Assembly (NCBI GenBank): GCA_045599325.1
Contig: JAZRVT010000005.1
Coordinates: 17,089-81,088, forward strand
Length of the DNA: 64,000 nt
Source: Bacteroidales bacterium
GTDB taxonomy: Bacteria; Bacteroidota; Bacteroidia; Bacteroidales; UBA932
Reading direction: 5' to 3'
The position numbers and the translations under genes were made by a program. A model generated the notes under the pieces. The model ran no database searches. It was not told the DNA's origin and worked only from the letters and a program-made list of their open reading frames with translations. Position 1 is the first letter of the stretch, and each line of letters starts with the position of its first letter. Shown here piece after piece: positions 14,860 to 40,074 of this stretch.

Positions 14860-14872
14860 AGAAAAATATCCA

Positions 14873-14880
14873 TACCTTTG
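14873..14880 (+). promoter_or_regulatory. -7 promoter box TACCTTTG upstream of the methyltransferase gene
   Basis: Exact TAnnTTTG, 6 nt before the ATG at 14887. Confidence 0.45.
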
Positions 14881-14886
14881 TAACTT

Positions 14887-15789: not shown

Positions 15790-15798
15790 AGCAAAAAT

Positions 15799-16677: not shown

Positions 16678-16690
16678 CCATCAAGCAGAG

Positions 16691-19624: not shown

Positions 19625-19665
19625 TCCTTGGGCCTTCCGCCTCTGTCTGCCGGTTTTCCGGCCTG

Positions 19666-19830: not shown

Positions 19831-19840
19831 AGGATGACTG

Positions 19841-20776
19841 CTAATAGATTGTGCCTGCGTTCACTACCGGCTGGGCGTTCTCATCGGCGCAGAGAACTAC
19901 CAGGAGGTTGCTGACCATTGCGGCCTTGCGTTCTTCGTCGAGTTCGACGACCCCTTCGCTCTTGAGGTTGTCAAGGGCCAGCTTGACCATTGAGACAGCA
20001 CCTTCCACAATCTTCTCGCGGGCTGCGATGATTGCGTCGGCCTGCTGGCGGCGGAGCATCACGGCTGCGATTTCAGGAGCGTATGCAAGATAGTTGATAC
20101 GTGCCTCGACAGCCTCGATGCCGGCGATGGCAAGTCTCTCGTTGAGAGTATCGGTCAGCACGTCATTGATCTCATCCGCCCCTGAGCGGAGGGTCACTGC
20201 GCCGTCGCTCGCGCCGGAATTCTCATCATAGTTGTAGTCACCGGCCACCTGTCTGAGAGCAGCATCAGCCTGCACGCGGACAAAACTCTCGAAAGCCTTC
20301 ATAGTGGAGCTCACTGTGCCGCCGACGCTCATTGTCTGCGAGTCAATCTCGAAGAGGCTCTTGTAGACATCCTTCACCTTCCATACGAGCACCATACCGA
20401 TCATGATAGGGTTGCCGCTTCTGTCGTTGACCTTGATTGCGTCGCCGTCGAAATTGCGGGCGCGGAGGGAGACTGACTTCTTGCTGAGCAGAGGGTTGAC
20501 ATACCAGAATCCGTTCTCCCTGAAGGTGCCCTTGTATTTGCCGAAGAAGACGAATGCCTTTGCTTCGTTAGGTTCGAGCTTGACCAGGCCGATGGCCAGG
20601 AAGAAGATTGCAAAAATCGAAGTGACTATTGTAATGGCGATCGCGTTGTCCGGACTGCTGAAGCCCGAAACATTGTTAAGAATAATGATGTCACAGACGA
20701 TGATGGCGATGATGAGCAGCAGAGCGATGAAACCGCTGCACCTGAATCCTTTGAACTCTTTGTCCTTTGTTTCCAT
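19841..20776 (-). CDS. SPFH/band-7 domain membrane protein
   Basis: Start set to the ATG at 20776 (METKDKEF...). Two N-terminal TM segments, then an SPFH-like core and Ala/Glu-rich helices ([24 protein letters not shown]). The 85-aa upstream extension of the track ORF looks non-coding. Confidence 0.85.
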
Positions 20777-20786
20777 AGCAGAAAGT

Positions 20787-20808
20787 ATTTTGATATCATT
20801 TTGATATC
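20787..20808 (-). repeat. perfect tandem 11-bp repeat (GATATCAAAAT x2 on the minus strand), operator-like
   Basis: Plus strand reads ATTTTGATATC twice (20787-20797, 20798-20808). Each unit contains the palindrome GATATC. It sits between the -7 box and the SPFH start codon. Confidence 0.7.
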
Positions 20809-20809
20809 G

Positions 20810-20817
20810 CAAATATA
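20810..20817 (-). promoter_or_regulatory. -7 promoter box TATATTTG (minus strand) for the SPFH-arc operon
   Basis: Plus strand reads CAAATATA. Exact TAnnTTTG on the minus strand, 33 nt upstream of the ATG at 20776. Confidence 0.5.
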
Positions 20818-20999
20818 TCAACAACTTCTCATATTTCCAAAAAATACTTATGAATCTGAGCCTTTGCTTCCCAATGATGATCTCCGACCGGATTGGGCGT
20901 GGTTTGAAAGTCGGTGACCGACCAGGACGTGACTTGCAAGATGCTGACCGACAAGGCAGCGTGATTCGCAAATACCTGATTATCAACCGATAGAGCAAC

Positions 21000-21026
21000 T
21001 TGGCTTCCCGAAAAACGGGAAGCCAA
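21000..21026. repeat. perfect 11-bp-stem hairpin/palindrome in the intergenic region
   Basis: TTGGCTTCCCG, loop AAAAA, CGGGAAGCCAA. Outer arms GATAGA (20989-20994) and TCTATC (21035-21040) could extend the stem. No U-tract follows on either strand. Confidence 0.6.
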
Positions 21027-21148
21027 ATCAAGCATCTATCTGATAATCTACAATTTACAAATCACGCCACAAAGGTAATCAATGAAAGTTGACCACCCCT
21101 CCCGACTTATGGCAGAGTAGCGCCGCTGCTGAAGCTGATTGGAGCACA

Positions 21149-21241
21149 CCGAGAAGTGCAAAACCGGCCTTCCCACACTTCTTGAAGGGTTCAGAAGGCC
21201 CGAGAAGTGCAATTCGGGGCCTCCGGCACTTCTTGACCCGG
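21149..21241. repeat. two tandem copies of a ~40-nt hairpin-forming repeat
   Basis: CCGAGAAGTGCAA occurs at 21149 and 21200, and CACTTCTTGA at 21176 and 21227 (51-nt period). Each copy folds as AGAAGTG(C)-N15-17-(G)CACTTCT. Confidence 0.65.
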
Positions 21242-21309
21242 ATAGTACTAGTTCAAAGGTCAGCGCCTTCGCTGCGGGGACGAAGAATCTATGTGAACAG
21301 AATAAATGC

Positions 21310-21317
21310 TATATTTG
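21310..21317 (+). promoter_or_regulatory. -7 promoter box TATATTTG upstream of the 264-aa secreted protein gene
   Basis: Exact TAnnTTTG, 6 nt before the ATG at 21324. Confidence 0.45.
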
Positions 21318-21323
21318 TAATGT

Positions 21324-22118
21324 ATGCGGCGGGCGGCTCTCATATTGGCGATATTGGTTTCTGCGCTGACTCTCAGGGCGCAGGAAGTGACTGTGCCGCC
21401 GGACTCTGCCAGAGTCGGGACTGCGCAGAGCAGCCAGTCGCTGAACTCTGAAGCGCTCACCGCGGAAGACCCTTCGTGGAGGCGCTACAGCGGACAGACC
21501 CAGGGCGCAGATGCCCAGACTGCCGTACCTTTCTCCCAGCCAAAATTCGATGTTCTGCCACACGTGCCCGACTGGATGTACGGAGGATCGTCTTTCAGCA
21601 ATTATATCGGACTTGGGAGTGTCGCTTCCGCGCAGATCGGATACCGGAACAGCTATCGCAACCTGTCGTTCCAGATAGGGGCCGGGGCCGACAAATATAT
21701 GTTCAACTACATCAGTTCCAACAACTTCTATCTCAACGCAGCAGCCACATATTCATTCAGTCCCATCTGGTCAGTGACCGCCTTCGGCCAGGTCGCAAGC
21801 AATTCGGACTTCATCACGATGCAGGCAGTCCCTTATATCCGTACGTCATCCTACGGTGCGACAGTCAATTATTCAGGAGATGCCTGGGGACTGCAGATCG
21901 GCGCCCGGAGAGAATTCGATCCGTTCACCGGCGGCTGGGAGATGTATCCTGTCGTGGTTCCTTCAATAAAAATCGGAGACTTCAGCTTCGGCGTAGATGT
22001 CGGCCCTATGATCAAGCAGGGCTACAGGAGACTTCAGGACCGCAACAACCCTCCGCCCCCGGCTCCGCATCCTTCCTCCGAACCCGTCACCCACGGATTC
22101 CCGAATGTCAGAAGATAA
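21324..22118 (+). CDS. hypothetical secreted beta-rich protein with Pro-rich C-terminus
   Basis: 264 aa. Signal peptide MRRAALILAILVSALTLRAQ. Ser/Tyr/Asn/Gly-rich strand-like core and a tail NNPPPPAPHPSSEP. No domain recognised. Confidence 0.6.
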   Translation: MRRAALILAILVSALTLRAQEVTVPPDSARVGTAQSSQSLNSEALTAEDPSWRRYSGQTQGADAQTAVPFSQPKFDVLPHVPDWMYGGSSFSNYIGLGSVASAQIGYRNSYRNLSFQIGAGADKYMFNYISSNNFYLNAAATYSFSPIWSVTAFGQVASNSDFITMQAVPYIRTSSYGATVNYSGDAWGLQIGARREFDPFTGGWEMYPVVVPSIKIGDFSFGVDVGPMIKQGYRRLQDRNNPPPPAPHPSSEPVTHGFPNVRR

Positions 22119-27328: not shown

Positions 27329-27814
27329 ATGAGATACCTTGTCCGTTCCCTCAAATACCTTGCCTACTTTATGATATTCTTCATATTCATAGTGGGCGTC
27401 ATCTGGATCTTCTCCTCCCAGAAGCAGGCGGGACTTTCATTCGCCGAACTCTTCGAGGAAGGTTCGCTCCCTAAACTGGCAATATTCTTCATCGCCGTGG
27501 CAGCCGTCTATCCGGCGCTCGGCTTCCAGAAGAGGAAACTCTACCTCAACGGTGATTTCAGCAAATATGCAGGAGCAGTCCGCGAGGCGATGGAGTCCCT
27601 GGGCTATGAACTCGAATCTGAGGAGGGCGGCACAGTGACCTACCGCGTCGTCTCCGGCTACGGCCGCGCCACCAGGATGTGGGAGGACCGTATCACCTTC
27701 ACCACCAGCGACAACCCTGTCATCGTCGAAGGCATCCGCAAGGACCTCGTCCGCATCGCCAGCGCCGTCAACTTCAAGATCAGGGAACTCGACCCTCAGG
27801 AGACCGAGGCATAG
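27329..27814 (+). CDS. hypothetical membrane protein
   Basis: 161 aa from the ATG at 27329 (MRYLVRSLKY...). Two TM segments and then a soluble alpha/beta-looking domain. No domain recognised. Confidence 0.6.
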   Translation: MRYLVRSLKYLAYFMIFFIFIVGVIWIFSSQKQAGLSFAELFEEGSLPKLAIFFIAVAAVYPALGFQKRKLYLNGDFSKYAGAVREAMESLGYELESEEGGTVTYRVVSGYGRATRMWEDRITFTTSDNPVIVEGIRKDLVRIASAVNFKIRELDPQETEA

Positions 27815-27874
27815 TCTGTCCTACCCGTAACTGACAAACAAGACGGAAAAGGCGGTAGCGGCAGCTAATTCCCC

Positions 27875-29329
27875 TTAGATATTTTCCAATGTAGAGGCGA
27901 TCAGTTTCCACCACTTGGATACTGACGATACAAGAACTCTTTCGTCCGGAGAATGAGGGGAACATAGTGTCGGACCGCAGGATACCATCTGGATCTCAGG
28001 ATAAACGCCTGAAAGAATGCCACATTCAAGGCCTCCATGGAGAGCCTTGACAGCTGGTTCATATCCAAAGAGGCTGACGTATATTTCTTTCATCCTGTTC
28101 AGAATCGGAGAGCTCATATCAGGCTTCCAGCCGGAATACCAGCCTGAGAAAACACATTCAGCACCTGCCATCTCGAAAATTGAGCGAACAGCCTCTGCCT
28201 CTGCCAACTTTATTGAATCCGAAAGGCCACGAAGCATACACGTGACTCTCGCTTTCTCTTCCTCTGTCTTCACTATCGCGATATTGTTGGACGAATCCAC
28301 TACTCCCTCAATGTCAAGGCTCATTCTAAACACACCGTCCGGGCAGGAAACAATTGCCTTGAGGAGATTCAGTGCGACACAGTTTTCAATGGATGAAACC
28401 GCCTCAGTTCTGCTGACGGCTATTGTGACATTCGGATCCGCTTTGCCTGCTTCCGATTTCACCGCCGATGTGAATTCATCTATGAACAGTGACACTTTAT
28501 CAACCTCCTCTTGAGGAACTGCGATGACTGAGACAGCCTCACGAGGTATGGCGTTTCTCATATCACCGCCATCAAAGGAGACGAGCAGACAGCCCATATC
28601 ACGGACCAGAGGAAGTACGCATCTGGATGCAATCTTATTTGCGTTGGCACGTCCTTTCTCTATATCCATTCCAGAATGGCCGCCCAGCATCCCTTTAAAA
28701 ACAATTTCAAGAGCGACATATCCGGAAGGCAACGGAGTCCTTGAATAATTGAACATCGCATTGAAATCGTAGCCTCCGGCACACCCCACATAAAGCTCGC
28801 CTTCTGTCTCCGAATCAAAATTGATCAGGTAGTCTCCACTGAGGAATCCCTGTTTCACGTTCCTGACACCCGTCATTCCAGTTTCTTCTCCTACTGTGAA
28901 AAAGCCGTCCAACGGACCATGCTGCAAAGTGTCGGACTCCAGAACAGCCATTATCGCAGCGCATCCAAGACCATCATCCGCGCCCAGTGTCGTTCTGTCA
29001 GCCATAACCCACTGTTCTCCATCTATCAACTCAATATGAGTCTCTATAGGATCCTTCAAGAAATCATGAACTTTGTCCTTGTCTTTCTGGGGAACCATAT
29101 CCATATGTGCTTGGAGTATGATTTTCTTTTTACCCTCCATCCCCTTGGAGGCCGGTTTATGAATAAGCACATTACCCACAGAATCCCGTTCTGTTTCAAG
29201 TCCGAGACTTCGACCGAAATTCTCAATATAATCGCTCACCATTTCCTCATGCCTGCTTGCACGCGGTATCCTGGTGAGTTTATAGAAATTATTCCATACG
29301 CAACACGGTTCAAGATCTCTGATGGTCAT
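27875..29329 (-). CDS. pepD: aminoacyl-histidine (Xaa-His) dipeptidase, M20C family
   Basis: 484 aa. N-terminus LEPCCVWNNFYKLTRIPRASRHEE, metal-ligand blocks LQAHMDMV, GADDGLG and GEETGMTG, and C-terminal HSPDERV. Confidence 0.9.
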   Translation of the reverse strand: MTIRDLEPCCVWNNFYKLTRIPRASRHEEMVSDYIENFGRSLGLETERDSVGNVLIHKPASKGMEGKKKIILQAHMDMVPQKDKDKVHDFLKDPIETHIELIDGEQWVMADRTTLGADDGLGCAAIMAVLESDTLQHGPLDGFFTVGEETGMTGVRNVKQGFLSGDYLINFDSETEGELYVGCAGGYDFNAMFNYSRTPLPSGYVALEIVFKGMLGGHSGMDIEKGRANANKIASRCVLPLVRDMGCLLVSFDGGDMRNAIPREAVSVIAVPQEEVDKVSLFIDEFTSAVKSEAGKADPNVTIAVSRTEAVSSIENCVALNLLKAIVSCPDGVFRMSLDIEGVVDSSNNIAIVKTEEEKARVTCMLRGLSDSIKLAEAEAVRSIFEMAGAECVFSGWYSGWKPDMSSPILNRMKEIYVSLFGYEPAVKALHGGLECGILSGVYPEIQMVSCGPTLCSPHSPDERVLVSSVSKWWKLIASTLENI

Positions 29330-29357
29330 ATCGGATATTATTAAAGATTATTTTAGC

Positions 29358-30632
29358 CTATTGATCCCTTTTATTCAACTCAATTACGGTTTTTCTAAGA
29401 TCAGCCTTACGGACACCGTCAATCCTGACAGGATGTAGTTTGCCGTCTTCGCCTTTCACCGTGGTTGTCAATGTCCTGCGCGGGTCAATCATTTCCTGTT
29501 CATAATGAACTGCTCCTCTCCTGCATCTGTTGCCTGTCACCTGACCGGAGTCATCACGCCTGATAGAGCACCCATTAGGGCAAAGAGGGCATATTACCAC
29601 ACCTTCCTCCGGGAAACCCTTCTTCAAAGCACCTGAAGGAACGTACACAAACTCCTCCAACTGCTCATTCCTAAGGTATCTGGCCGCGTTCTTCCCAGCT
29701 ATTGCCCCCTGTTTAGAAACAAGGTCTGCAAGGTCCATGACCTTACGGCAGTTACCACAGGCAAAGATTCCCTTTCTGCTGGTCTGAAGGCAGTTATCAG
29801 TAAGCACTCCATTGCTTTTCCCATCAAGTTCTATGTGAGCTGTGAGTGCCACTTCATTTTCAGGGATAAGGCCAACTGAAAGCACCAGGCTGTCACATTC
29901 TATCAGTCTCTGAGTACCTGGAATGGGGCGTTTATTGTCGTCAACTGCCGAAATTTCAACTGCAGTGAGCTTACGGCGGCCAATGATATTGCTTACCGTA
30001 TGGCTCACATAGATTGGGATATCGAAATCATACAGGCACTGACTGATATTTCTCTGAAGTCCGCAAGGCTCCTTCATTATCTCAATTACTGCAAGGACTT
30101 TAGCCCCCTCCAGAGTAAGGCGGCGCGCCATAATCAACCCGATGTCTCCAGAACCGAGTATGACCACTCTCTTGCCAACCATAATATTTTTGACATTGAC
30201 AAGATCCTGGACCACTCCGGCTGTAAATACACCTGCGGGCCTGGTTCCTGGAATGGAGATTGCCCCACGTGTCCTCTCCCGGCACCCTGTTGCAAGAACA
30301 ATGGACTTTGACCGAATCTTGCGCAACCCCTCCCGGCACACGGCAGTTACTGTCTTGTCATCATCTATTGAGAGCACCATATGGCCGGTGGCGATTTCCA
30401 CACCTGCGGACACTGCCTCCTCACTTGCTCTCTGAGCATATTCAGGGCCAGTCAAAGCCGCATTATATCTGATAATTCCAAAACCGTCATGGATGCACTG
30501 TCGCAACACACCCCCGGAAAAATCGTTTCTGTCAAGAACGATAACCTTTTCGGCACCATTCTGTTTTGCCGCTGTAGCAGCAGCAAGGCCTCCAGGACCG
30601 GCACCCACAACAACAACATCAAATAATTCCAT
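29358..30632 (-). CDS. NAD(P)/FAD-dependent pyridine-nucleotide-disulfide-type oxidoreductase fused to a DUF1667-like C-terminal domain
   Basis: 424 aa. Two Rossmann motifs (VVVGAGPGGLAAA; VILGSGDIGLIMA) and ACGNC. The last ~85 aa (CPLCPNGCSI...GNRCRRGAVHYEQEMIDPRRTLTTTV) match the DUF1667 Cys pattern. Confidence 0.8.
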   Translation of the reverse strand: MELFDVVVVGAGPGGLAAATAAKQNGAEKVIVLDRNDFSGGVLRQCIHDGFGIIRYNAALTGPEYAQRASEEAVSAGVEIATGHMVLSIDDDKTVTAVCREGLRKIRSKSIVLATGCRERTRGAISIPGTRPAGVFTAGVVQDLVNVKNIMVGKRVVILGSGDIGLIMARRLTLEGAKVLAVIEIMKEPCGLQRNISQCLYDFDIPIYVSHTVSNIIGRRKLTAVEISAVDDNKRPIPGTQRLIECDSLVLSVGLIPENEVALTAHIELDGKSNGVLTDNCLQTSRKGIFACGNCRKVMDLADLVSKQGAIAGKNAARYLRNEQLEEFVYVPSGALKKGFPEEGVVICPLCPNGCSIRRDDSGQVTGNRCRRGAVHYEQEMIDPRRTLTTTVKGEDGKLHPVRIDGVRKADLRKTVIELNKRDQ

Positions 30633-32098
30633 TATTTAACCCTCCCACTATATAGTTCTGAACCGGGGCCTCTGAACGTGATATCCTCAGGCTCGATGTT
30701 GTACTCTTTCTCAAGTATTTCTGATATTCTTGAAAGACAGTATCCACCGTTACATCTTCCAGTTGTAGCCCAAACGCGGTATTTGATCCCAGAGATTGTC
30801 TTTACTCCAAGCGGATTTTCAATTGCCTGACATATCTCTTTCCTAGTGACTTGCTGGCATCTGCAGACCACATCACCATAAGATGGATCCTTCCTGATCA
30901 AATCAGCTTTAACCTCGTCCGGCTGTTCGCTGAATTTCAAAATCCGCTTGCGATTCGGCTTAACTTCTTTCTTTTTAAGTTCAAGTGTTTCCGCTATGAT
31001 GGACCGGACCATTTTTGCTATCGGCATCGAAGCTGTCATTCCAGGCGATTCTATCCCGACCAGATTAATAAAGCCTTTGCAGGAAGATTCTTCTTTGATT
31101 ACGAAATCGTGAAAACCTCCTTCTTTAGGAGGGGCCTGTTTCGACCTTATCCCCGAATATGCTCCGATTACCTGACTTCTTTCAAGTGTCGGAAGGAGTT
31201 TGTGAGCCTCAGCAAAGAGTCTGTCTATCAGTTCCTGAGTCGAAGCGTAATCTTCGCTGTCCTCTATATATTCAGCACTTGGTCCTATGATGATGTTCCC
31301 GTGTATTGTCGGTGTAAGATGCACTCCCAAGCCTCCAATATTGCGTTTTGGTGCAGGATATACAGGAACATTCAGCACCTTGTCAGCAATCTTGTCAAGT
31401 ATCAGGTACTCCCCACGGCAAGGGAATATGCGGTAATCCCCACAACCTGCCATTGCTGAGACTTTGGCCGAATTGAGGCCAGCGCAGTTTACTATCATCC
31501 TGCAGAGGAAAACCTTATCATTTGAGCTTACTTTGAAAAAGCCGTCTTCCTTATCGATTGATGAGACTTCCTGACCAAGGAAGAATTCAACGCCGTTGTC
31601 AGCGGCATTATCCGCAAGTGCAACAGTATATAGAAAAGGATCGAAGACCGCCGTATTAGGAGAATATAATGCTGCAATGCCTCCTACGTCAGGCAAGACA
31701 GAATGCAAAGCTTTTGCGTCAATTATCTCAAGGCCTTTGCAGCCGTTGGCCTTACCTTGCTCGAGAATTGACTCAAGGGTAGCATAATCTTCATTATCGA
31801 AAGCCACCACATACTTTCCAGTCTTTTTGTAGGGGACATCAAGGTCCTTGCATAGTTTTTCAAACCCATCATTCCCTTCCACACAAAGTCTGGCCATAAG
31901 ACTGCCGGGCCTATTGTTGAAGCCGGCGTGAACGACACCTGAATTACGACCGCTCGTGGCTGCCGCAACATCAAATTCTTTCTCCAGTACAGCGACCTTC
32001 AGGTCATAGCGGGAAAGATCATAGGCGACGGCGCATCCTACTGCGCCGGCGCCTATGATAAGGATATCAAACGGACTCATATCCATAAATGGTTGCAT
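30632..32098 (-). CDS. FAD-dependent dehydrogenase/oxidase, GlpA/LhgO-like, with C-terminal BFD-like [2Fe-2S] domain
   Basis: 488 aa. DILIIGAGAVGCAVAYDLS, FPCRGEY, GIESPGMTAS. C-terminal Cys pattern VCRCQQVTRKEI...TGRCNGGYC. Its stop overlaps the next start by 1 nt. Confidence 0.85.
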   Translation of the reverse strand: MQPFMDMSPFDILIIGAGAVGCAVAYDLSRYDLKVAVLEKEFDVAAATSGRNSGVVHAGFNNRPGSLMARLCVEGNDGFEKLCKDLDVPYKKTGKYVVAFDNEDYATLESILEQGKANGCKGLEIIDAKALHSVLPDVGGIAALYSPNTAVFDPFLYTVALADNAADNGVEFFLGQEVSSIDKEDGFFKVSSNDKVFLCRMIVNCAGLNSAKVSAMAGCGDYRIFPCRGEYLILDKIADKVLNVPVYPAPKRNIGGLGVHLTPTIHGNIIIGPSAEYIEDSEDYASTQELIDRLFAEAHKLLPTLERSQVIGAYSGIRSKQAPPKEGGFHDFVIKEESSCKGFINLVGIESPGMTASMPIAKMVRSIIAETLELKKKEVKPNRKRILKFSEQPDEVKADLIRKDPSYGDVVCRCQQVTRKEICQAIENPLGVKTISGIKYRVWATTGRCNGGYCLSRISEILEKEYNIEPEDITFRGPGSELYSGRVK

Positions 32099-32119
32099 TT
32101 ATTGCCTGACAAACACCAA

Positions 32120-33169
32120 TTAATAATATTTATAGCCAGCCTTCTTGAGTTGATCAATATTCTTGAATCTATGAGGCGGATTGAGGTATGAAGCCATGAA
32201 TTCATAAGTCTTGAACCTTATCTCTACGGACTCCCTGCTGTCAATCCTCTCAAATACGTGCGCTCCAGGCATTGGAGGATAAATCTCATATTCAAATTCT
32301 TTGTTGTAGAACTTCAGAGAATCTATCATCCTTTCTACTTCAGTATGGCTTACGTCATCATCATTTATGCAGGTAGTGATCATCAGCGGCCTTTCGAGCA
32401 ACTTTGCATATGTCACAGGGGACCTCCTTGCATATTCTTCCGGCTTTTCATCCGGTAGAGCGCCTATATGGTACTTAGGTGTAAAGTTATTCTTGTAACT
32501 CGGCAACTGATATGTCAGGCGATAGGCAACGTCGCTCACAGGGACACCGGCATACCCGCAGACATATTTTTCCGGATAACGAAGAATGCTCATCAAGGTT
32601 ATCATTCCTCCGTGGCTCCACCCCATTATACCGACGCGCTCCGGATCAACGACAGAGTAATTCTCCACCATATAGTCCCTTGCAGCAAGTACGTCTTCAT
32701 TTTCGAGTCCGCCGTAATCGATGGCCTCATATATCGCTCTGCCCCATCCTGTACTTCCACGATAATCCGGGCACAAAACGATATAACCCTGACAAACCAT
32801 TTCACGCAATATGTGAATGTAGGATGTTCCGAAAGAGCCATGGATTCCTCCGTGAGGGAAAACCATCAGCGGATATTTTTTCCCCTGCTTGATATCCTTG
32901 GGGAAAAACACATAGGAATAGAATATCAACTGATTATTGCGCAGTGTATCTTTGAACGCGCAATTCGGTTTTCTAGTCTGAACAGCCTTCGGAGGTCCGG
33001 CAAGTCTCAGGATATCCATATATGCGACGTCCTCCATCGCCATCCTGATGTAGACATTGTCAATCTTCTTCTGAGTATTCTGCTCAGAAGAATAATCCTG
33101 AGCGCTGGCGCTGCTGAAAATGAACAGCGCCAGTACAGGAAACAAAAACCCAAATAATCTATTAACCAT
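32120..33169 (-). CDS. secreted alpha/beta hydrolase, prolyl-oligopeptidase (S9) catalytic-domain type, no beta-propeller
   Basis: 349 aa with a signal peptide. Nucleophile elbow GWSHGG, candidate acid NDDDV and His GAHVF, in S9 order. Confidence 0.8.
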   Translation of the reverse strand: MVNRLFGFLFPVLALFIFSSASAQDYSSEQNTQKKIDNVYIRMAMEDVAYMDILRLAGPPKAVQTRKPNCAFKDTLRNNQLIFYSYVFFPKDIKQGKKYPLMVFPHGGIHGSFGTSYIHILREMVCQGYIVLCPDYRGSTGWGRAIYEAIDYGGLENEDVLAARDYMVENYSVVDPERVGIMGWSHGGMITLMSILRYPEKYVCGYAGVPVSDVAYRLTYQLPSYKNNFTPKYHIGALPDEKPEEYARRSPVTYAKLLERPLMITTCINDDDVSHTEVERMIDSLKFYNKEFEYEIYPPMPGAHVFERIDSRESVEIRFKTYEFMASYLNPPHRFKNIDQLKKAGYKYY

Positions 33170-33180
33170 AACTGCAGTTT

Positions 33181-34737
33181 TTAATCTTTATTGCTCAAAG
33201 GATTCTGGTCTTTTGTAATGTCAAGGGCTGCATTGCCATCGAATTCCATCTGTGGAATAGGCATAACCCACATATAACAGTCAGGTCTGCTTGTATCGCC
33301 TGTCACCTTAGTGATGGCATCGTTGCTGAATCCTTCCTCAGCCACTCTTACAAAGCCTTGCTTGAGTCTCTTGATATCGAAGATTCTTCCTACTTCAGCC
33401 CAAAGTTCAATTCGGCGCTGGATGATGATTTCTTCAAGAAGGGAGCCAGTCCATTCATCTGTCAACTTACCGAGGGCGGTTCCGGATTTATCACACTTAT
33501 AATCCGGGTCGCGTTTTGCCATCAGTTCATTGAGGAGGGTGATTGCAGCTCTGTCATTCCCCAAACGGCATTCCGCTTCAGCTTCAGTAAGTAGCATTTC
33601 CTCGTTGCGCATGAAAATATAGTCACCCATATACGTGGATATGTCAGCATACAGGAACTTCACCTGTTGATAGTGGAAGCCTCCTGCAACTTTCGAATCG
33701 GCCACAGCCTCGAACCACTTCCTGCGTATATCATTTGCACCCATCTTGCTGTAAAGAGTAGGCGTGATGTATTTAGGCTGCCTTGTTCCGTGAGTACCCT
33801 CCTTCTGCATATGGGCAAAGAGATTCCTCTGGTAATCAGTCTGGTCAGAGGTGATGATATGCCCCCATATGACATTCTGCACATCTACTCTGTTCATACC
33901 CTTGAGGATATCGTCCGCCTCACCTATCTTCGTATTGCTGCGGGCGATGGCAGCACACTCCTTGGCTTTCTGGAAATCGTTCATTTCCATAGCGACCCTT
34001 GCTCTGAAACCGTTTGCAGTGAAGTAGTCGATATGAGAGATGTGTGTCTTCTCGTGTGAAGCATTAAGCCTGGTGATTGCTGTATCCAGGTCAGCCACTA
34101 TCACATTATAGACCTCCTGCACGCTTGAACGAGGCTTACCCGAAGTTCCCGCAGAACTCGGCTCTGTGTATACCGGCACGCACGGATCGGACTCGTGGCC
34201 TTTGTATGTTCTTGAAAACCATTGAGCGAGCATAAAATAGCTGAAACCGCGGATAGCGTATGCCTGGCCAATTATGTAGTTGATCTCTGAAGGAGTGCCC
34301 TGCATGATTTCCTTAGAGTCAATGATGTAGTTTGCATTGGCAATGTAGGTATAGAACTCTTTCCAGGCACTTCCGGAACGGCCTGAAGTTGCGGTCCACC
34401 TTTCCTTCATCGTATATGTATGGTCTCTGTAGAACCAGTTTCCACCCTTAAGCGCTATGATCATATCATCTCCCATTGCATCAGCAGCGAGCAGGTCTGC
34501 CCTGAGGGCGAAGTTCATAGTATAGTCACCTGCCGTACTCCAACCATGACTGTGCATCAAGGAATAGATGCCATTGAGAGGAACAAGGGCCGCAGTGGTG
34601 TTGTCAAACATGCTTGACCCTGATACTTTTGTAGTCGGATTCGTCTCCAGCGCATCCTCCGAGCAAGAAACGGAGATGCACGCAAACAAAAGCGCCGTTA
34701 ATATGTATAATGCTGTCTTTTTCATAAGTGTACTCAT
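33181..34737 (-). CDS. RagB/SusD family nutrient-binding outer membrane lipoprotein
   Basis: 518 aa. Lipobox ISVSCSE, helical SusD-like sequence, and a start abutting the susC stop (TAAATG). Confidence 0.9.
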   Translation of the reverse strand: MSTLMKKTALYILTALLFACISVSCSEDALETNPTTKVSGSSMFDNTTAALVPLNGIYSLMHSHGWSTAGDYTMNFALRADLLAADAMGDDMIIALKGGNWFYRDHTYTMKERWTATSGRSGSAWKEFYTYIANANYIIDSKEIMQGTPSEINYIIGQAYAIRGFSYFMLAQWFSRTYKGHESDPCVPVYTEPSSAGTSGKPRSSVQEVYNVIVADLDTAITRLNASHEKTHISHIDYFTANGFRARVAMEMNDFQKAKECAAIARSNTKIGEADDILKGMNRVDVQNVIWGHIITSDQTDYQRNLFAHMQKEGTHGTRQPKYITPTLYSKMGANDIRRKWFEAVADSKVAGGFHYQQVKFLYADISTYMGDYIFMRNEEMLLTEAEAECRLGNDRAAITLLNELMAKRDPDYKCDKSGTALGKLTDEWTGSLLEEIIIQRRIELWAEVGRIFDIKRLKQGFVRVAEEGFSNDAITKVTGDTSRPDCYMWVMPIPQMEFDGNAALDITKDQNPLSNKD

Positions 34738-37700
34738 TTAGAACGTTACTTTCAAGCCGATAACAGATGTTTTGGTAGGGTTATAGACATAGTTTGTCGT
34801 ACCGCCAATGCTCTGCTGAGGGTTCATACCGTTGAGGTGTGTGAATGTCCAGAAGTTATCAAGGGAGCCATAGATTCTCAACTGCTGAGCCTTGATCCCC
34901 TGAATCCATTTCTTAGGGAGGTTAAATCCGAGAGTGATGTTCTTGATTGCAAAATAAGAAGCATCGATAAGCAGACGGCTCGAGATAGGTGACGAACCGC
35001 CGAGTTCAGCACGAGGCACATCTGTCACGTCACCCGGCTTCTGCCATCTGTCAAGCACATAAGTAGAAAGGGCCCTGCCTGTCTGTGTAGGCGCCACTAA
35101 CTCCTTATAGATCTGGTCATAAACCTTGCCGCCAAGTGAATAGGTAGTCAATATGCTGAGGTCCACATACTTGAAGATTTCAAAATCGGTACCGATGGAA
35201 CCGGTGAGCTTAGGCATACGGCTCCCTAGATAATACTTGCATCCAGTCGCAACTGCGAAGTCAGTAGTCAGATACTCTCCTACAGGATTTCCATTCTCAT
35301 CCATGCTTTCATATGCCCAGAACTGTTCCTTTCCAGTTTCAGGATCCACGCCTGCGTGCTTTACCATATAGAAGGTGTACATCGGCCGGCCTTCCTCATA
35401 GATCTGTTGTCCGCTGACATAAGAAGGCGACTCTGTAGTAAGTTTCAATATCTTGTTCTGGATTGAAGTTCCCATCACGCTCGCCTTCCAGGTGAAGTTC
35501 TTTCTGTCCACGAGAACACCTCTTACAGAAAACTCGACACCCTTGTTCTCAAGGCTTCCCACATTCGCATCATATCCGCTGAAACCGGTGGACACGGCCA
35601 TAGGATAGTTCAGGAGCATATCTCTTGTGACTCTGTCGTAGTACTCCACTGTGAAATCGAGTCTGTCACCGAACATTCTGGCATCGAGTCCGACGTTCAA
35701 GTTGGCATTCTTTTCCCAAGTCACGTTCTTGTTCTCCAATGAAGAGACCACTGCTCCCTGAGCTCCGTCATTAGGATGCCCGAGCTCGTAGAAACTCTGC
35801 CATGCATAGTAAGTGTCAAGGTCATCATTTCCCTGAACGCCATAACTGACCCTCAGATTGAGATTGTTGAGCCATCCTACCGACTGCATGAAGTTCTCAT
35901 TAGTTACGCGCCAGTTAGCACCGACAGACCAGAAATTGCCCCAACGGTTTTCTTTATAGAAACGGGATGAACCGTCACGACGGAAAGAAGCCGAGAAATA
36001 ATATCTGTTCTTGTAATCATAGTTGATACGGGAAAGATAGGACTCGATAGCATAGACATTCGAGTATGAGTCATTGTCAACACTGGATGTGGCAGGACGA
36101 AGCTCATATATTCCATCTGTCAGATTTGATTTGGTGGCATCCAGATAATGGTACACATAATTGTAGTACTCGTGACCGCCTACGAAATCTATGGTGTGTC
36201 CGGAGAATGTCCTGTTATAGGTCAGCAGCTGGTTGAAGGTGAAGCTTGTAGTTCTCTTGAAATATTTATAGAGGCGGCCGTTTGCAGGTGCATAGGATCC
36301 GTTATACATATTGTTGTACTGGGTCTGATAGATGTCACGGTTGTCACCGCCGAAGTTGGCTGTCAACTTGAGCCCCTTGAGCCATCCTGCATTATCCTTG
36401 TCAGTGCCGAGACGGAGGTAAGTCCTGACACTTTCATTCATTCCCTCCTGAGAGTTGTCATCTTCATAGATAAGACCGACCACATTCCAACCCGGCCAGG
36501 ACGGTCTTGTCTCACCATAGTCATATACCAAGTTCCCGAGCTCATCGTAAATCTGCTTGCCTGAAGCGTCTTTTGCATAGATTGGATAAATAGGACCTAT
36601 GAGCTGTGCATAGTAGAACTGGTTGCCGTATGAGTTTCCTGTAGTCAGGATTCCCTTGAAATCAGTCTTTGCAAGAGAAACGTTGAGGCCTGCGGAAATC
36701 CAGTGTGTAATTTCAGAATCCACATTTGCTCTCGCGCTGAATCTCGTATAGCCGGCATTGTTGACATATCCGTCCTCATCAAGATAGCCCAAAGAGAGCA
36801 TGGATTTGGTCTTTTCCGTGCCGCCTGTCACAGAAAGCAGGTGCTCTGTCCTGAAAGCGTTGTGGTGAACGACGCCGTCATCAAGCCAGTCCTCATCCCA
36901 TACAGGAGTTGCATCGCTGCGGACATGACCTGTTTCATCAATGATATTTCCCCAGGTGTAGTTCTTGAACGGGTTGTAGATCTCACCGCCCATTGTCGTC
37001 GACATATTGTCTCTTGCTGCCTGCTCTGCTTCTTCCCAGCTGTAATTGCCTGTATCCCAGTACTTGTTTCTCAAAGACTCGTAGCTGAGCTGTGTCCACT
37101 GTTTCTGGTCAAGTCTGTCATAATATTTGAGAGCAGGATTAGACCAGCCCACTATGCCAGTGTAAGTGACGGTCGGCTGACCGGCCTTGCCTTTCTTGGT
37201 AGTAATCATAACTACGCCGTTTGCACCACGCGCACCATAAAGAGCGCCTGAAGAAGCATCCTTGAGGACGGTGATACTTTCAATATCATTAGGATTGATG
37301 GCATTCAAGCCCCCATCATAAGGGATGCCGTCCACTACGTAGAGAGGTTCCTTTGAAGCATTGATTGAGCCATAGCCACGAATCACAATGCTGTTTCCCT
37401 CGCCCGGAGCACCGGAGCCTGATGTCACCATCACACCGGCGACCTGACCCTCAAGTGACTTGGCCACATTGGCAGAAACTCTCTGCTCGATCTTCTTATC
37501 ATCAACAACAGCAGCAGAGCCGGTGATTGAACCTTTCTTTGCAGTACCATAGGCTACGACCACCGTTTCTTCAAGCAGCTGCGCATCTTTCTTGAGAGCA
37601 ACCGCTATGCTCTGACGTTTCTTCACAGCGACAATCTGAGAGGTGTATCCGATTGAAGAAATTTCCAGTTCACCGTCGAAAGGTACATTTTCTATGGTGA

Positions 37701-38145
37701 ATTCTCCATTCTCATTTGCAGAGACACCGTTCATCGTACCCTTGAGGACAATGCTCGCAAAGGCGATAGGGGTTCCATCTTCAATGGCGGTGACTTTACC
37801 TGTCACCTTGAGTCCGGACGGCTGCTCTTTTGGTGCAGGATCACCCTTTTTCAAAACGACTGCTTGACGTACAATTTCATAAGTAAGTCCTGTTTCCTGG
37901 CAAATCCTGCCGAGAACTTCCGTGAATCCAACATTGTCCATAGAAACAGTCAAAGGAGCGATTCCGCTCAGCTCCTGCTTCTGATAAACAAAAGTGTAGT
38001 TTGTTTTACTTTCGAGATCTGCAAGGACTTGCACAATTGGTGCATCCTTATAGTTGACACTGAATGTCTGTGCCTTTACCGCAGAAGGTATGAGCATCAG
38101 GCAAACCAACAGCGCCATGCTAAGTTTTTTAAAGGTCTCTGACAT
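34738..38145 (-). CDS. SusC/RagA family TonB-linked outer membrane transducer with N-terminal STN signalling domain
   Basis: 1135 aa. Signal peptide, STN-like domain (FSVNYKDAPIVQVLADLESKTNYTFVY), carboxypeptidase-regulatory-like domain, plug (IVIRGYGSINASKEPLYVVDGIPY), and a barrel ending GLKVTF. Confidence 0.93.
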   Translation of the reverse strand: MSETFKKLSMALLVCLMLIPSAVKAQTFSVNYKDAPIVQVLADLESKTNYTFVYQKQELSGIAPLTVSMDNVGFTEVLGRICQETGLTYEIVRQAVVLKKGDPAPKEQPSGLKVTGKVTAIEDGTPIAFASIVLKGTMNGVSANENGEFTIENVPFDGELEISSIGYTSQIVAVKKRQSIAVALKKDAQLLEETVVVAYGTAKKGSITGSAAVVDDKKIEQRVSANVAKSLEGQVAGVMVTSGSGAPGEGNSIVIRGYGSINASKEPLYVVDGIPYDGGLNAINPNDIESITVLKDASSGALYGARGANGVVMITTKKGKAGQPTVTYTGIVGWSNPALKYYDRLDQKQWTQLSYESLRNKYWDTGNYSWEEAEQAARDNMSTTMGGEIYNPFKNYTWGNIIDETGHVRSDATPVWDEDWLDDGVVHHNAFRTEHLLSVTGGTEKTKSMLSLGYLDEDGYVNNAGYTRFSARANVDSEITHWISAGLNVSLAKTDFKGILTTGNSYGNQFYYAQLIGPIYPIYAKDASGKQIYDELGNLVYDYGETRPSWPGWNVVGLIYEDDNSQEGMNESVRTYLRLGTDKDNAGWLKGLKLTANFGGDNRDIYQTQYNNMYNGSYAPANGRLYKYFKRTTSFTFNQLLTYNRTFSGHTIDFVGGHEYYNYVYHYLDATKSNLTDGIYELRPATSSVDNDSYSNVYAIESYLSRINYDYKNRYYFSASFRRDGSSRFYKENRWGNFWSVGANWRVTNENFMQSVGWLNNLNLRVSYGVQGNDDLDTYYAWQSFYELGHPNDGAQGAVVSSLENKNVTWEKNANLNVGLDARMFGDRLDFTVEYYDRVTRDMLLNYPMAVSTGFSGYDANVGSLENKGVEFSVRGVLVDRKNFTWKASVMGTSIQNKILKLTTESPSYVSGQQIYEEGRPMYTFYMVKHAGVDPETGKEQFWAYESMDENGNPVGEYLTTDFAVATGCKYYLGSRMPKLTGSIGTDFEIFKYVDLSILTTYSLGGKVYDQIYKELVAPTQTGRALSTYVLDRWQKPGDVTDVPRAELGGSSPISSRLLIDASYFAIKNITLGFNLPKKWIQGIKAQQLRIYGSLDNFWTFTHLNGMNPQQSIGGTTNYVYNPTKTSVIGLKVTF

Positions 38146-38163
38146 AATTTATATAATTTGGTT

Positions 38164-39393
38164 TTATGGTCTCTTTGAAATCAGTATCCTGTTGTTTTCC
38201 ACTGCAAAATGGAGATGTCCACTCTTTTCCAGGACTTCAAGCACATCTCCGAACTTTCCGTTGCGGGCAAGCCTTCCCATAAAAACGGTTTTGGCAGCCT
38301 CCTCCGATTTAAACTCATAGGAGAAGTCGTACCAACGGCTCAGCTGTCTCATTATCTGTTCAAGCGTCTGCTCCTCAAAAACGAACATTCCGTCTTTCCA
38401 GCTTGTCACCAAATCCGTTGAAACAGGCTTGACTTGAGTGGACCCGTCACCTTTGGCGAAGGAGGCCTGATGTCCCGGGGTAAGAATCAGTTCGCTGTCG
38501 CTGCCGTCGTTCTTTTTCAGAGAGATACACCCGTTGACAAGCGTGGTATAGACACACTCGTCTTCCTCATATGAGAGAACGTTGAACTCTGTGCCATAGA
38601 CACAGACCGTCTGTCCTGAAGTCCTGACTCTGAACTGCCGGCCCCTGCTGTCTTTGGCCACCTTGAAATAGGCCTCTCCGGTCAATTCCACATCTCGTGT
38701 ATCACCGTCGAAACAATCCGGATACCTCAAGACTGATTCAGCATTCAACCACACTTCAGAACCATCCTCCAGAACTATATGGAACTCACCGCCGCGGGGA
38801 ATGGAAAGATTGTTGAGTGCCTCGCGATCCTTGGCCGACTTCTCCCTTTTCTCTTTCGCCGCCGTTATGGCTTCGTGGTTGTTTGCCTCATTATTGCCAA
38901 GGACGACTGTCTGCCCGTTGTCCGTAACAAGGGTCGCCTTTGTCTCGCCCGGACGTATGGACTCGAAATAGGACGTTTCCTGCGTTTTCTTCAGAAGATT
39001 CTCATACTTTCGATGATAACTTATCAATTGCCAGGAAAGTATGGACAATGCTATAAATGCGGAAGCTGCTACAGCACGCATTGCTGCAAGATGTTTGCGC
39101 TGCGCCTTTCTGTATTCTATTGTAATCCTGTTCTGCATCGATCGCGCAGCTCCCTGAGGATCAATGAGATTCCATTGTTCTAATTTCCCGGCATACCAGT
39201 TCTCTGCCATAATCTTATCAAAAAGCTTCGCATTGGCAGGGTTTGTGTCAATCCAGTTCTGAAGTTCGGAGGATTCTTCTTCAGAAACCACCTGAAAAAT
39301 GTTTTTGGAAATCAGTTCCGCAATCCGTTCAAAATCCACGTCCTTTTCTATCATTTGCCTGGCATTATTTATCCAACTGAATATATGACACAT
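38164..39393 (-). CDS. FecR family anti-sigma factor
   Basis: 409 aa. Cytoplasmic N-domain, single TM (AVAASAFIALSILSWQLI), periplasmic FecR-like domain, and a C-terminal DUF4974-like segment (FVFEEQTLEQIMRQLSRWYDF). Alternative start at ATG 39354 (MIEKDVDF). Confidence 0.88.
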   Translation of the reverse strand: MCHIFSWINNARQMIEKDVDFERIAELISKNIFQVVSEEESSELQNWIDTNPANAKLFDKIMAENWYAGKLEQWNLIDPQGAARSMQNRITIEYRKAQRKHLAAMRAVAASAFIALSILSWQLISYHRKYENLLKKTQETSYFESIRPGETKATLVTDNGQTVVLGNNEANNHEAITAAKEKREKSAKDREALNNLSIPRGGEFHIVLEDGSEVWLNAESVLRYPDCFDGDTRDVELTGEAYFKVAKDSRGRQFRVRTSGQTVCVYGTEFNVLSYEEDECVYTTLVNGCISLKKNDGSDSELILTPGHQASFAKGDGSTQVKPVSTDLVTSWKDGMFVFEEQTLEQIMRQLSRWYDFSYEFKSEEAAKTVFMGRLARNGKFGDVLEVLEKSGHLHFAVENNRILISKRP

Positions 39394-39451
39394 TCAGATA
39401 AAAAAAGTATACATGAATTCTGAAATATGACAACATATCCATGCTATTCTG

Positions 39452-39459
39452 TAACTTTG
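39452..39459 (+). promoter_or_regulatory. -7 promoter box TAACTTTG upstream of the ECF sigma gene
   Basis: Exact TAnnTTTG, 8 nt before the ATG at 39468 and downstream of the track's start at 39441. This argues for 39468 as the real start. Confidence 0.45.
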
Positions 39460-39467
39460 CGTTGAGT

Positions 39468-40034
39468 ATGGACGAACACTCTATATATGATGATTTCATC
39501 TCTGGAGATATCGAGTCCCTGTATATGAAGATATACAGAGGTCTTGTCTCATTCGCTAACAGCTATCTGAGCCCTAATTACTCTTTCCTTTCGGAAGATG
39601 TCGTTCAAGAGTGCATCTACAATGCATTCAAGAGGAAAGACAGCATCAAGCGCGGATTTCTGAAAGCATATCTGTTCACATCGGTACGCAACGCCTGTCT
39701 CAATATCCTGAGAAAAGGCCGGTCCAATGAGAACTATTTGAAATACTTCAATGAAAGTGAAAACGATATAATCAACAATATCATTGAAGAAGAGACATTC
39801 CACATCTTGTTCACAACCATCGAAAAGCTATCCTTCAACCACAGGGAAGTATTGAACATGTCATTTTTTGAAGGATTGAAAATCAGCGAGATCGCTCAGA
39901 GGCTCGGTCTGTCTGAAATAGCCGTCAAAAAAAGAAAGGCCAACGCTTTGGAAGCCCTTAAGGACTTACTGGCGAGAGAAGGCGTTCTTGGCGCAGGCAT
40001 GGCGACTGTCTCTCTCGTACTGCGACTGCTTTAA
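39468..40034 (+). CDS. RNA polymerase ECF-type sigma-70 factor
   Basis: 188 aa from the ATG at 39468. Region 2 (EDVVQECIYNAFKR) and region 4 HTH (LKISEIAQRLGLSEIAVKKRKANAL). Divergent from fecR. Confidence 0.88.
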   Translation: MDEHSIYDDFISGDIESLYMKIYRGLVSFANSYLSPNYSFLSEDVVQECIYNAFKRKDSIKRGFLKAYLFTSVRNACLNILRKGRSNENYLKYFNESENDIINNIIEEETFHILFTTIEKLSFNHREVLNMSFFEGLKISEIAQRLGLSEIAVKKRKANALEALKDLLAREGVLGAGMATVSLVLRLL

Positions 40035-40074
40035 CTCCAATTTGATTCCTGCCTGCCGGAAACGATCCAGCACG

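Follow-up and report, generated by a model that had tools for sequence, protein, structure and literature searches.

The stretch of Bacteroidales DNA analysed here (64,000 nucleotides in full, hereafter the window) carries two overlapping genes for a 488-residue protein (P0001) and a 424-residue protein (P0002) that, judged from their sequences, belong to the FngABC (GlpTk-NOX-MOX) family. With moderate confidence, we propose that the pair is a soluble cytoplasmic flavin/iron–sulfur (Fe-S) oxidoreductase acting on 2-hydroxy-(di)carboxylates and 2-oxo acids, that it represents the non-glycerol branch of this family, and that it is cargo of an acquired SusCD locus. An earlier note on this DNA, generated by a model, had argued that the pair is not the housekeeping glycerol-3-phosphate (G3P) enzyme linked to the glycerol kinase gene glpK, and this view is borne out by the position of the pair in a family tree, its active-site signature, the foreign island on which it lies and its recurring association with SusCD genes.

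Domains of the pair and membership in the FngABC family

The FngABC family now has a characterised member. The products of P. furiosus PF2005-2007 were purified by Schut, Poole and Adams (Biochemistry 2026, PMC13689815) as the heterotrimer FngABC, an electron-bifurcating enzyme in which the oxidation of G3P and of ferredoxin is coupled to the reduction of nicotinamide adenine dinucleotide (NAD+). In this enzyme, FngA carries flavin adenine dinucleotide (FAD) and a [2Fe-2S] cluster, FngB, which reacts with NAD(H), holds the FAD at which bifurcation is proposed to occur, and FngC is a DUF1667 protein with a [4Fe-4S] cluster. The prototype is specific for G3P, and many of its homologues are not linked to glycerol genes and lie near those of sugar kinases or polyol enzymes, for which polyols or sugar phosphates were suggested as substrates (PMC13689815). 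The same family, with the Thermococcus kodakarensis complex, was named GlpTk-NOX-MOX by Schmerling et al. (PMC11962113). The corresponding features of the window are as follows.

30632..32098, minus strand: FngA-like catalytic subunit, 488 residues (P0001), with a DAO-type FAD domain (DAO, 247 bits, residues 11-364) and a C-terminal BFD domain
30710..30871, minus strand: BFD-like [2Fe-2S] domain of the catalytic subunit, residues 410-463 (Pfam Fer2_BFD, 34.9 bits; Cys 412, 414, 449, 454)
29358..30632, minus strand: FngB-FngC fusion, 424 residues (P0002), a two-Rossmann FAD/NAD(H) flavoprotein (Pyr_redox_2, 125 bits, residues 4-309) with a truncated DUF1667
29361..29600, minus strand: truncated DUF1667 (FngC-like) domain, residues ~345-424, with Cys 348, 351, 355 and 370 as presumed [4Fe-4S] ligands

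Both open reading frames, their one-nucleotide overlap, the BFD Cys cluster and the motifs FPCRGEY and GIESPGMTAS of the 488-residue protein, all of which the earlier note had described, were found at their coordinates; the stop codon TAA of the 488-residue gene and the start codon ATG of the 424-residue gene have one base in common, at 30632, and the two genes are translationally coupled. P0001 has the make-up of an A subunit, a DAO FAD domain followed by a BFD domain with four Cys, and C412, C414, C449 and C454 are invariant or nearly so across 40 homologues. P0002 has that of an adjoining, co-transcribed B subunit with two dinucleotide-binding GxGxxG motifs; the best NCBIfam model of this part is the sarcosine oxidase alpha family, at 95 bits and far under its cut-off. 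The DUF1667-like tail is real, though weakly matched and short at its C-terminal end: it scored 23.6 bits in hmmscan against a gathering score of 27, over model positions 2-37 of 82, and 27.0 bits in a six-frame search, while C348, C351, C355 and C370 are invariant across 26 homologues. It aligns to separate FngC over the first ~80 residues, the last 30-35 residues being missing. A fold search with the model of the fused protein returned generic flavoproteins of the thioredoxin reductase/dihydrolipoamide dehydrogenase type only and left the C domain unmatched. The pair does not belong to the E. coli type of anaerobic G3P dehydrogenase, GlpABC, as the GlpA model TIGR03377 gave 132 bits against a cut-off of 553 bits and neither GlpB nor GlpC is encoded in the locus.

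The fusion of the B and C parts, which the earlier note had taken for a distinguishing feature, proved to be common. Among the 120 homologues that match P0002 best, nearly all have DUF1667 on the same chain; most are 450-460 residues long, and those with names come from Firmicutes. Stand-alone FngB proteins (410-423 residues) have an extra C-terminal domain of ~90 residues, whereas fused forms run directly into DUF1667. Because fused forms also occur beside glpK (460 residues in locus L123 and 458 in L107), the fusion is not diagnostic of function. In the clade of the window, the fused proteins are 421-429 residues long and lack the end of DUF1667 but keep its four Cys. What is new is a Bacteroidales-specific lineage with a truncated C domain, recruited as cargo of a SusCD locus family. 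As a separate observation, representatives of 900-990 residues (P0284, P0285, P0292, P0327, P0328, P0331-P0333, P0381 and P0386) match the whole A subunit in their N-terminal half, indicating that A-B(-C) single-chain fusions, reports of which otherwise concern protists (PMC11962113), also occur in data from prokaryotes and metagenomes.

Position in the family tree and active-site signature

For the phylogeny, 80 metagenome loci were gathered with an A-subunit profile and combined with the loci of the closest homologues and of the same genus; genes were called, and neighbours were labelled by BLAST, with GlpK, MIP and the proteins of the window itself as references. In the tree, which holds 81 A subunits and was built by a quick IQ-TREE search with support only from the approximate likelihood ratio test in its Shimodaira–Hasegawa-like form (SH-aLRT) and including many short contigs, the window protein, P0004, L017 and L019 form one clade (SH-aLRT 97), all of whose members are SusCD-linked. 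The sister of this clade (SH-aLRT 99) consists of P0008 and L004, from Bacteroidales loci for capsule or lipopolysaccharide biosynthesis, the cluster of P0008 including a protein named 'Bacteroidales bacterium'. The next branch (SH-aLRT 98) holds stand-alone fused pairs of the Oscillospiraceae type (L020, L021, L036, L037). All these groups are nested in a clade of 54 rows (SH-aLRT 100) in which a glpK neighbour was seen in none of the 26 loci with at least six other genes. The glpK-linked rows, eight in number, all fall outside it, and the comparison with glpK-linked homologues that the earlier note had proposed thus shows no clustering with them. Three of these rows are glpK-fngA-fngB operons of the window's own genus (L120, L121 and L123, from genomes G432, G437 and G430), 34-37% identical to the window pair, and both lineages of the family thus occur in one genus.

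The neighbours sampled in the 54-row clade included regulators (four of the FCD-type GntR kind, besides LysR and AraC), a DASS (Na_sulph_symp) carboxylate transporter, alcohol dehydrogenases, an enolase-superfamily protein and a LarA-like protein. In this small sample, they fit organic acids better than sugar phosphates. The capsule-locus sister clade (L004:10001-13738 and the P0008 contigs) has a setting of its own, in which the pair occupies a conserved position, flanked by genes for an acyltransferase and a nucleotide-sugar epimerase/dehydratase. In every case, a gene for a 324-residue NAD-dependent epimerase/dehydratase comes after the pair, and genes for DegT aminotransferase, NeuB, acyl-carrier and AMP-ligase proteins lie nearby.

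The catalytic subunits on the two sides of this division differ at a few positions, numbered here as in P0001. Position 247 is Tyr in all 54 rows of the clade and Phe in all 26 glpK-type and basal rows; position 260 is likewise His in 54 of 54 and Leu in 26 of 26. At position 257, the clade has Leu, Met or Phe, as against Lys in 26 of 26, and at position 51 it has mostly Arg, as against Ala in 25 of 26. Position 320 is Lys in the clade (53 of 54) and variable in the other rows. The GlpO protein of M. pneumoniae (PDB 4x9m) shows the Ala/Phe/Lys/Ile set, with Ile where the glpK type has L260. The Lys of GlpO at the equivalent of position 257 presumably binds phosphate, an assumption that is also consistent with the correlation between residue and gene context.

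The residues of the window protein point to another class of substrate. In Drosophila L-2-hydroxyglutarate dehydrogenase (L2HGDH), the ligands of 2-oxoglutarate are Ser88, His92, Tyr289, Leu299, His302 and Arg393 (PMC10726252), and the malate:quinone oxidoreductase (MQO) of Plasmodium needs the corresponding Tyr and second His in order to bind malate (PMC11097338). In a HMMER alignment, the six L2HGDH ligands correspond to S53, H57, Y247, L257, H260 and R318 of P0001, and all six are conserved. By this alignment, P0001 carries the ligand set of L2HGDH and MQO.

Profile and structure comparisons, which the earlier note had recommended, agree with this picture, with L2HGDH, 3dme and GlpO as the nearest relatives and glycine oxidase, proline dehydrogenase beta subunit and SoxB far behind. 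As a control, glpK-linked FngA proteins (L120, L098) matched GlpO 4x9m at 139 and 223 bits and L2HGDH at 78 and 107 bits; P0001 reverses the pattern, with 168 bits for L2HGDH (8w75) and 164 bits for 3dme against 133 bits for 4x9m. Furthermore, the NCBIfam score for GlpO-II exceeds that for LhgO by 122 to 160 bits in the glpK type and by 5 to 24 bits in the window's clade. The AlphaFold model of P0001 has a predicted local distance difference test (pLDDT) score of 93, and Foldseek placed L2HGDH and 3dme first (E ~2e-36), followed by GlpO (4e-33), at 29-31% identity. Amine oxidases (glycine oxidase, the P. horikoshii proline dehydrogenase beta subunit and SoxB) came at E ~1e-25 to 1e-24 with 16-22% identity, the soxB model gave 30 bits against a cut-off of 529 bits, and 1y56_B gave 66 bits against 168 for L2HGDH. 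Thus P0001 does not group with the SoxB or proline-dehydrogenase-beta type, in a comparison outside which OoxB and HcnC themselves lie. It is not a single-subunit LhgO either: the LhgO model (NF008726) reached 238.7 bits against a cut-off of 299 bits over residues 11-287 only, and P0001 has a BFD domain and a coupled FngB-C partner where LhgO has no Fe-S domain. Since the scores for LhgO and for GlpO-II (257 against 460 bits) both stay below their cut-offs, P0001 is an equivalog of neither.

A SusCD locus on a low-GC island

The pair is embedded in a SusCD-type uptake locus with trans-envelope signalling, as indicated by a SusC protein with Plug and STN domains, an adjoining SusD gene and a pair of genes for an extracytoplasmic function (ECF) sigma factor and a FecR-type anti-sigma factor. 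Its other features are the following.

27800..40050, no strand: low-GC island holding the whole locus, from composition profiles
39441..40034, plus strand: ECF-type sigma factor, divergent from the operon (Pfam Sigma70_r2/r4; TIGR02985 at 107 bits, below its cut-off of 126 bits; TIGR02937 above cut-off)
38164..39393, minus strand: FecR-type anti-sigma factor, operon gene 1 (Pfam FecR and FecR_C)
34738..38145, minus strand: SusC/RagA-type TonB-dependent transporter with an N-terminal STN signalling domain (TIGR04056, 768 bits, cut-off 368; Plug; STN weak; SusC signature motif)
33181..34737, minus strand: SusD-like surface lipoprotein (Pfam SusD-like_3 and SusD_RagB)
32120..33169, minus strand: secreted S9-type serine hydrolase of 349 residues, without a beta-propeller (Peptidase_S9, 115 bits)
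27875..29329, minus strand: PepD (Xaa-His or non-specific dipeptidase, M20), last operon gene (TIGR01893, 514 bits, above cut-off)

The Pfam and TIGRFAM matches agree with the earlier note, which had placed the pair in a SusCD operon between an S9 hydrolase and PepD. All intergenic gaps among the seven minus-strand genes are 28 nucleotides or less, indicating one transcript. The second-best solved relative of the SusC protein is RagA of P. gingivalis (347 bits, full length). Solved relatives of the S9 hydrolase align through their catalytic domains only, and its homologues in Bacteroidales number in the thousands. PepD is one of three paralogues in the genome, the other two, encoded elsewhere, being 56% and 39% identical. 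Neither a glycoside hydrolase in the locus nor an inner-membrane transporter on the island was found. In a promoter and terminator scan of the locus, which used a sigma-70 consensus unfit for Bacteroidota promoters, terminator-like sites were no commoner than in shuffled sequences. A search of sequencing runs gave one DNA run (0.07 share of words), and no RNA run was listed.

The locus was horizontally acquired and forms a foreign island. The guanine-plus-cytosine (GC) content is ~0.47 within ~27.8-40.05 kb, an island of 12 kb, as against 0.55-0.60 in the flanks, which hold housekeeping genes (HemN-like radical SAM enzyme, amino-acid kinase family protein, 3-deoxy-D-arabino-heptulosonate-7-phosphate synthase/chorismate mutase, DUF3109, TPR protein and U32 peptidase). 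Four genomes of the same family retain the U32-TPR-DUF3109 neighbourhood with different content at the position of the island. In G006, a genome of this family, ~9 kb of unrelated genes (L027:10300-19200) occupy the site, between the DUF3109 gene and a gene for a 313-residue membrane protein, so that the site has the look of a variable hot spot. None of the 49 other species genomes of the same genus yielded a close orthologue of P0001, although four have a distant one at 36-37% identity, and a sample of 400 genomes of the order yielded a full-length relative in only one, at 47% identity. A scan of genome contigs with the A subunit found only three distant loci (Smithella, Omnitrophota).

Related loci show that the pair keeps company with the uptake system. 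The order SusC-SusD-S9-A-BC-PepD of the window recurs in L017 and L018, and the P0004 contig has S9-A-BC-PepD followed by a C10 protease gene. In L019, the order is sigma factor, then A-BC-FecR-SusC, which places the pair between the genes for the sigma and the anti-sigma factor. Two gene orders thus preserve the link of the pair to the sigma/anti-sigma/SusC unit.

A commoner form of the locus (L132, L133, L136-L138) comprises genes for an ECF sigma factor, FecR, SusC, SusD, an enolase-superfamily protein with a twin-arginine translocation (TAT) signal, an S12 protein of the beta-lactamase fold, an S9 hydrolase and more S12 domains, with C1-like and M28 peptidases as well in some copies. The window proteins are 51-53% (ECF), 52-53% (FecR), 58% (SusC), 60-64% (SusD) and 76-81% (S9) identical to those of L132, L136 and L137, whereas the other SusC proteins of the window's genome are at most 36% identical to the SusC of L132; these loci therefore form one family with differing cargo. 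The enolase-superfamily protein is closest to 3iji of B. thetaiotaomicron (467 bits), then to solved dipeptide epimerases, and among NCBIfam models it scores best with the N-acetyl-D-Glu racemase DgcA and the L-Ala-D/L-Glu epimerase, all below their cut-offs. The commoner form thus looks aimed at D-Glu-containing peptides. The window variant lacks the epimerase and S12 genes, and the A-BC-PepD genes follow that of S9 instead. No published locus of the window's make-up was found in literature searches.

The commoner form is of interest in itself. The five metagenome contigs (L132, L133, L136, L137 and L138) represent a widespread Bacteroidales locus that is a candidate for the use of D-Glu-containing peptides of the cell-wall type, and a published description of it was not found. 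An M28 peptidase gene at 54863-56410 of the window (minus strand), ~15 kb from the island, encodes a protein 71% identical to the product of the M28 gene that ends L132. Elsewhere in the same genome (G000), contig C51 carries at ~8415-21743 a second SusC/SusD pair, ~26-31% identical to that of L132, within ~8 kb of a dipeptide-epimerase-like homologue (53%), and this region may be another peptide-type locus.

Proposed function, alternatives and known systems

In the mechanism that we propose, the 488-residue subunit would oxidise the C2-hydroxyl of an L-2-hydroxy-(di)carboxylic acid, resembling 2-hydroxyglutarate or malate, to the 2-oxo acid at its FAD, with His57 as the base, Ser53, Tyr247 and His260 holding the C1 carboxylate and Arg318 holding the distal acidic group. 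Of the substrates that the earlier note had listed, a hydroxy acid fits best, and glycerol phosphate and amine-type compounds rank lower. The two proteins would act as a complex in which electrons pass through the BFD [2Fe-2S] cluster to the FAD of the 424-residue subunit, which would also bind NAD(H) and, through the four-Cys cluster of the fused short DUF1667, may have the connection to ferredoxin seen in the prototype from P. furiosus. By analogy with that enzyme, NAD+ may be reduced as the hydroxy acid and reduced ferredoxin are oxidised together, and the reverse direction is conceivable. The hydroxy-acid couple would lie near -0.17 to -0.19 V, like that of G3P and dihydroxyacetone phosphate, which is too positive for NAD+ as the only acceptor, a difficulty that FngABC overcomes by bifurcation. 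Electron bifurcation among ferredoxin, NAD and the substrate couple is suggested by the layout of the cofactors, and exchange with ferredoxin would take place only if the shortened C domain still works. Most likely, as a best guess, the enzyme would handle a C4 or C5 acidic product of imported peptide-like material.

Several observations weigh against this proposal. The truncation of DUF1667 means that coupling to ferredoxin may be altered or lost. The assignment of the substrate draws on six aligned residues and on gene neighbours, the NCBIfam scores all lie under curated cut-offs, and the tree has the limits of a quick search over many short contigs. The clade that unites the SusCD-linked and capsule-locus proteins has an extra Lys-Lys/Arg pair (positions 251-252) beside the pocket, which could bind phosphate or a third acidic group, and the substrates that Schut et al. 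put forward for FngABCs outside glycerol metabolism are polyols or sugar phosphates (PMC13689815). Furthermore, the capsule-biosynthesis setting of the sister clade is hard to square with a purely catabolic role; neither this clade nor the basic residues are explained by a hydroxy acid as substrate. Finally, the genes of the locus offer no evident way of converting a peptide into an L-2-hydroxy acid, and an inner-membrane transporter is absent.

If the substrate is phosphorylated, the pair may be an ordinary FngABC-type G3P dehydrogenase, fed with G3P from glycerophosphodiesters or glycerol and merely lying beside the uptake locus. The best NCBIfam model of P0001 is still the type 2 G3P oxidase (257 bits), the family prototype is G3P-specific, and the genome encodes three GDPD phosphodiesterases and one MIP channel. 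According to the earlier note, a glpK/glpF pair elsewhere in the same regulon would speak for ordinary glycerol metabolism; a glycerol kinase above cut-off was found neither in the locus nor in the assembly, and we rejected this absence as evidence because the assembly is 86% complete and glpK is present in 8 of 12 genomes of the same genus. We nevertheless regard a G3P dehydrogenase as improbable, since the pair lies outside every glpK-linked group of the tree, P0001 lacks the A51/F247/K257/L260 set common to glpK-type rows and, with Ile for Leu, to GlpO, the control searches separate both types cleanly, three genomes of the genus have a separate glpK-fngA-fngB operon only 34-37% identical, and the genome has a separate GlpA-like/GlpC-like pair on contig C41. 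A phosphorylated polyol or sugar acid other than G3P, on an enzyme perhaps shared by capsule biosynthesis and catabolism, would account for the basic residues K251 and K/R252, specific to the uptake-locus and capsule-locus clade, for the conserved capsule-locus position of the sister clade and for the many FngABCs that lie near sugar kinases and polyol enzymes in place of glycerol genes (PMC13689815). This seems to us very unlikely, as an FGGY-type kinase occurs in none of the 51 annotated loci of the 54-row clade, the phosphate-associated Lys257 of the glycerol type is replaced, and the Tyr/His pair is the carboxylate-binding device of L2HGDH and MQO.

Substrates closer to the peptides of the locus have also to be considered. 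Oxidation of a C-N bond, by analogy with archaeal proline dehydrogenase, OoxAB, HcnABC and heterotetrameric sarcosine oxidase, in an imino acid, N-substituted amino acid or acidic D-amino acid (D-glutamate, for instance) released from imported peptides would suit the peptidase-rich locus, the D/L-Glu dipeptide epimerase of its commoner form, the sarcosine oxidase alpha model as the best match of the B part and a C5-dicarboxylate-shaped pocket into which glutamate would fit as well. We think it improbable: the catalytic subunit retains two features of the hydroxyl-oxidising subgroup, the NSGV(V/I)HAG His base and the carboxylate ligands, the amine oxidases are far more distant by profile and by fold, and a binding mode of the L2HGDH type matches the L- and not the D-configuration, on stereochemical reasoning only. 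The amine-oxidase analogy of the earlier note may thus hold at most for the distant family of the B subunit and fails for the catalytic subunit, in which the Tyr/His/Arg carboxylate ligands of L2HGDH are kept. D-Glutamate in particular was considered because of the epimerase in the sister loci and ranked low on the same residue and stereochemical grounds. It is likewise rather improbable that the pair is a bifurcating, ferredoxin- and NAD-coupled oxidoreductase of 2-hydroxyglutarate/2-oxoglutarate or of an acidic amino acid that replaces the D/L-Glu dipeptide-epimerase route in a locus for scavenging D-Glu peptides of the cell-wall type; if this were true, peptide import across the outer membrane would be tied directly to flavin-based energy conservation, and the enzyme would be the first of the FngABC type to act on a non-phosphorylated acid, and also the first to be encoded in a SusCD locus. 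Finally, the pair and PepD might be passengers that recombination in a variable cargo region has joined to a SusCD unit with which they have no functional connection. The cargo downstream of SusD varies strongly across the locus family, the same pair is found in unrelated capsule loci, and the island has no inner-membrane transporter. Against this, the pair accompanies the sigma/anti-sigma/SusC unit both where it stands after S9 and where it stands between the genes for the sigma and the anti-sigma factor, and the short gaps across seven genes indicate a single transcript, so that we consider a passenger role unlikely.

Siderophore or iron uptake, with FecR-type signalling and a flavin/Fe-S reductase, was a further candidate and was ranked low in view of the complete dehydrogenase active site and the peptidase cargo of the locus family. 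The GlpA-like/GlpC-like pair on C41 is unusual in its own right: a 670-residue protein (L002:1384-3396, minus strand) has a cytidylyltransferase-like domain (CTP_transf_like) fused to a GlpA-like DAO and BFD dehydrogenase, a fusion of nucleotidyltransferase and G3P-dehydrogenase types, and beside it, downstream of a guanylate kinase gene, lies the gene of a GlpC-like protein with CCG and 4Fe-4S domains (L002:1-1002, minus strand).

Genes of the FngABC trio are routinely annotated as G3P dehydrogenase, and the 54-row clade is probably mis-annotated in this way. Positions 51, 247, 257 and 260, whose residues were compared with the gene context and the control searches, separate the glycerol enzymes from this large clade, which is probably specific for hydroxy-dicarboxylates, and they offer a simple means to correct many annotations. 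Should the FngABC mechanism carry over, this clade would enable anaerobes to use NAD+ for oxidising 2-hydroxy acids of high potential, with reduced ferredoxin spent in the process. Moreover, the setting is unusual, in that a redox module of the cytoplasm shares its regulation with a SusCD transporter, within a locus family whose cargo is otherwise D/L-Glu epimerase and D-peptidase genes; it suggests that gut Bacteroidales have a nutrient niche not yet described, probably peptides of the bacterial cell-wall type, and that cargo is swapped in one uptake system.

Compared to P. furiosus FngABC and T. kodakarensis GlpTk-NOX-MOX, the window pair has the same modules (an A subunit with FAD and a BFD [2Fe-2S] domain, a two-Rossmann B and a DUF1667 four-Cys module), the same tight gene coupling and a soluble cytoplasmic location. 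It differs in that B and C are fused without the ~90-residue C-terminal domain of stand-alone FngB, the C domain is short by 30-35 residues, glpK is missing, and the pocket has Y247, L257, H260 and R51 where the glycerol type has F, K, L and A; its clade is separate from the glpK-linked members, to which it is 34-39% identical. Compared to L2HGDH and LhgO (8w75/8w78, Bordetella Bp3253 3dme and E. coli LhgO NF008726), which give the best sequence and fold matches of the catalytic domain, the identity is ~30%, and a BFD domain and an obligatory-looking FngB-C partner are added to what in those enzymes is a single quinone- or O2-linked subunit. GlpO of M. pneumoniae (4x9m) shares the fold (TM-score 0.91, target-normalised), the His base and the equivalent of Arg318, but has Phe/Lys/Ile in place of Tyr/Leu/His, uses O2 as its acceptor and is devoid of an Fe-S domain.

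As an uptake system, the locus resembles other ECF-sigma/anti-sigma SusCD loci and the RagAB peptide importer of P. gingivalis in its divergent ECF sigma gene, FecR, STN-bearing SusC and SusD. In contrast to those loci, it has no glycoside hydrolase, and its cargo consists of a propeller-less S9 hydrolase, a dipeptidase and a flavin/Fe-S dehydrogenase. The catabolism of murein peptides in E. coli involves MpaA, the L-Ala-D/L-Glu epimerase YcjG and PepD. The commoner form of the locus shares with this route a YcjG-like epimerase and the window variant shares PepD; unlike the E. coli route, the window variant has neither the epimerase nor an MpaA-like amidase, and its dehydrogenase pair is without a counterpart there.

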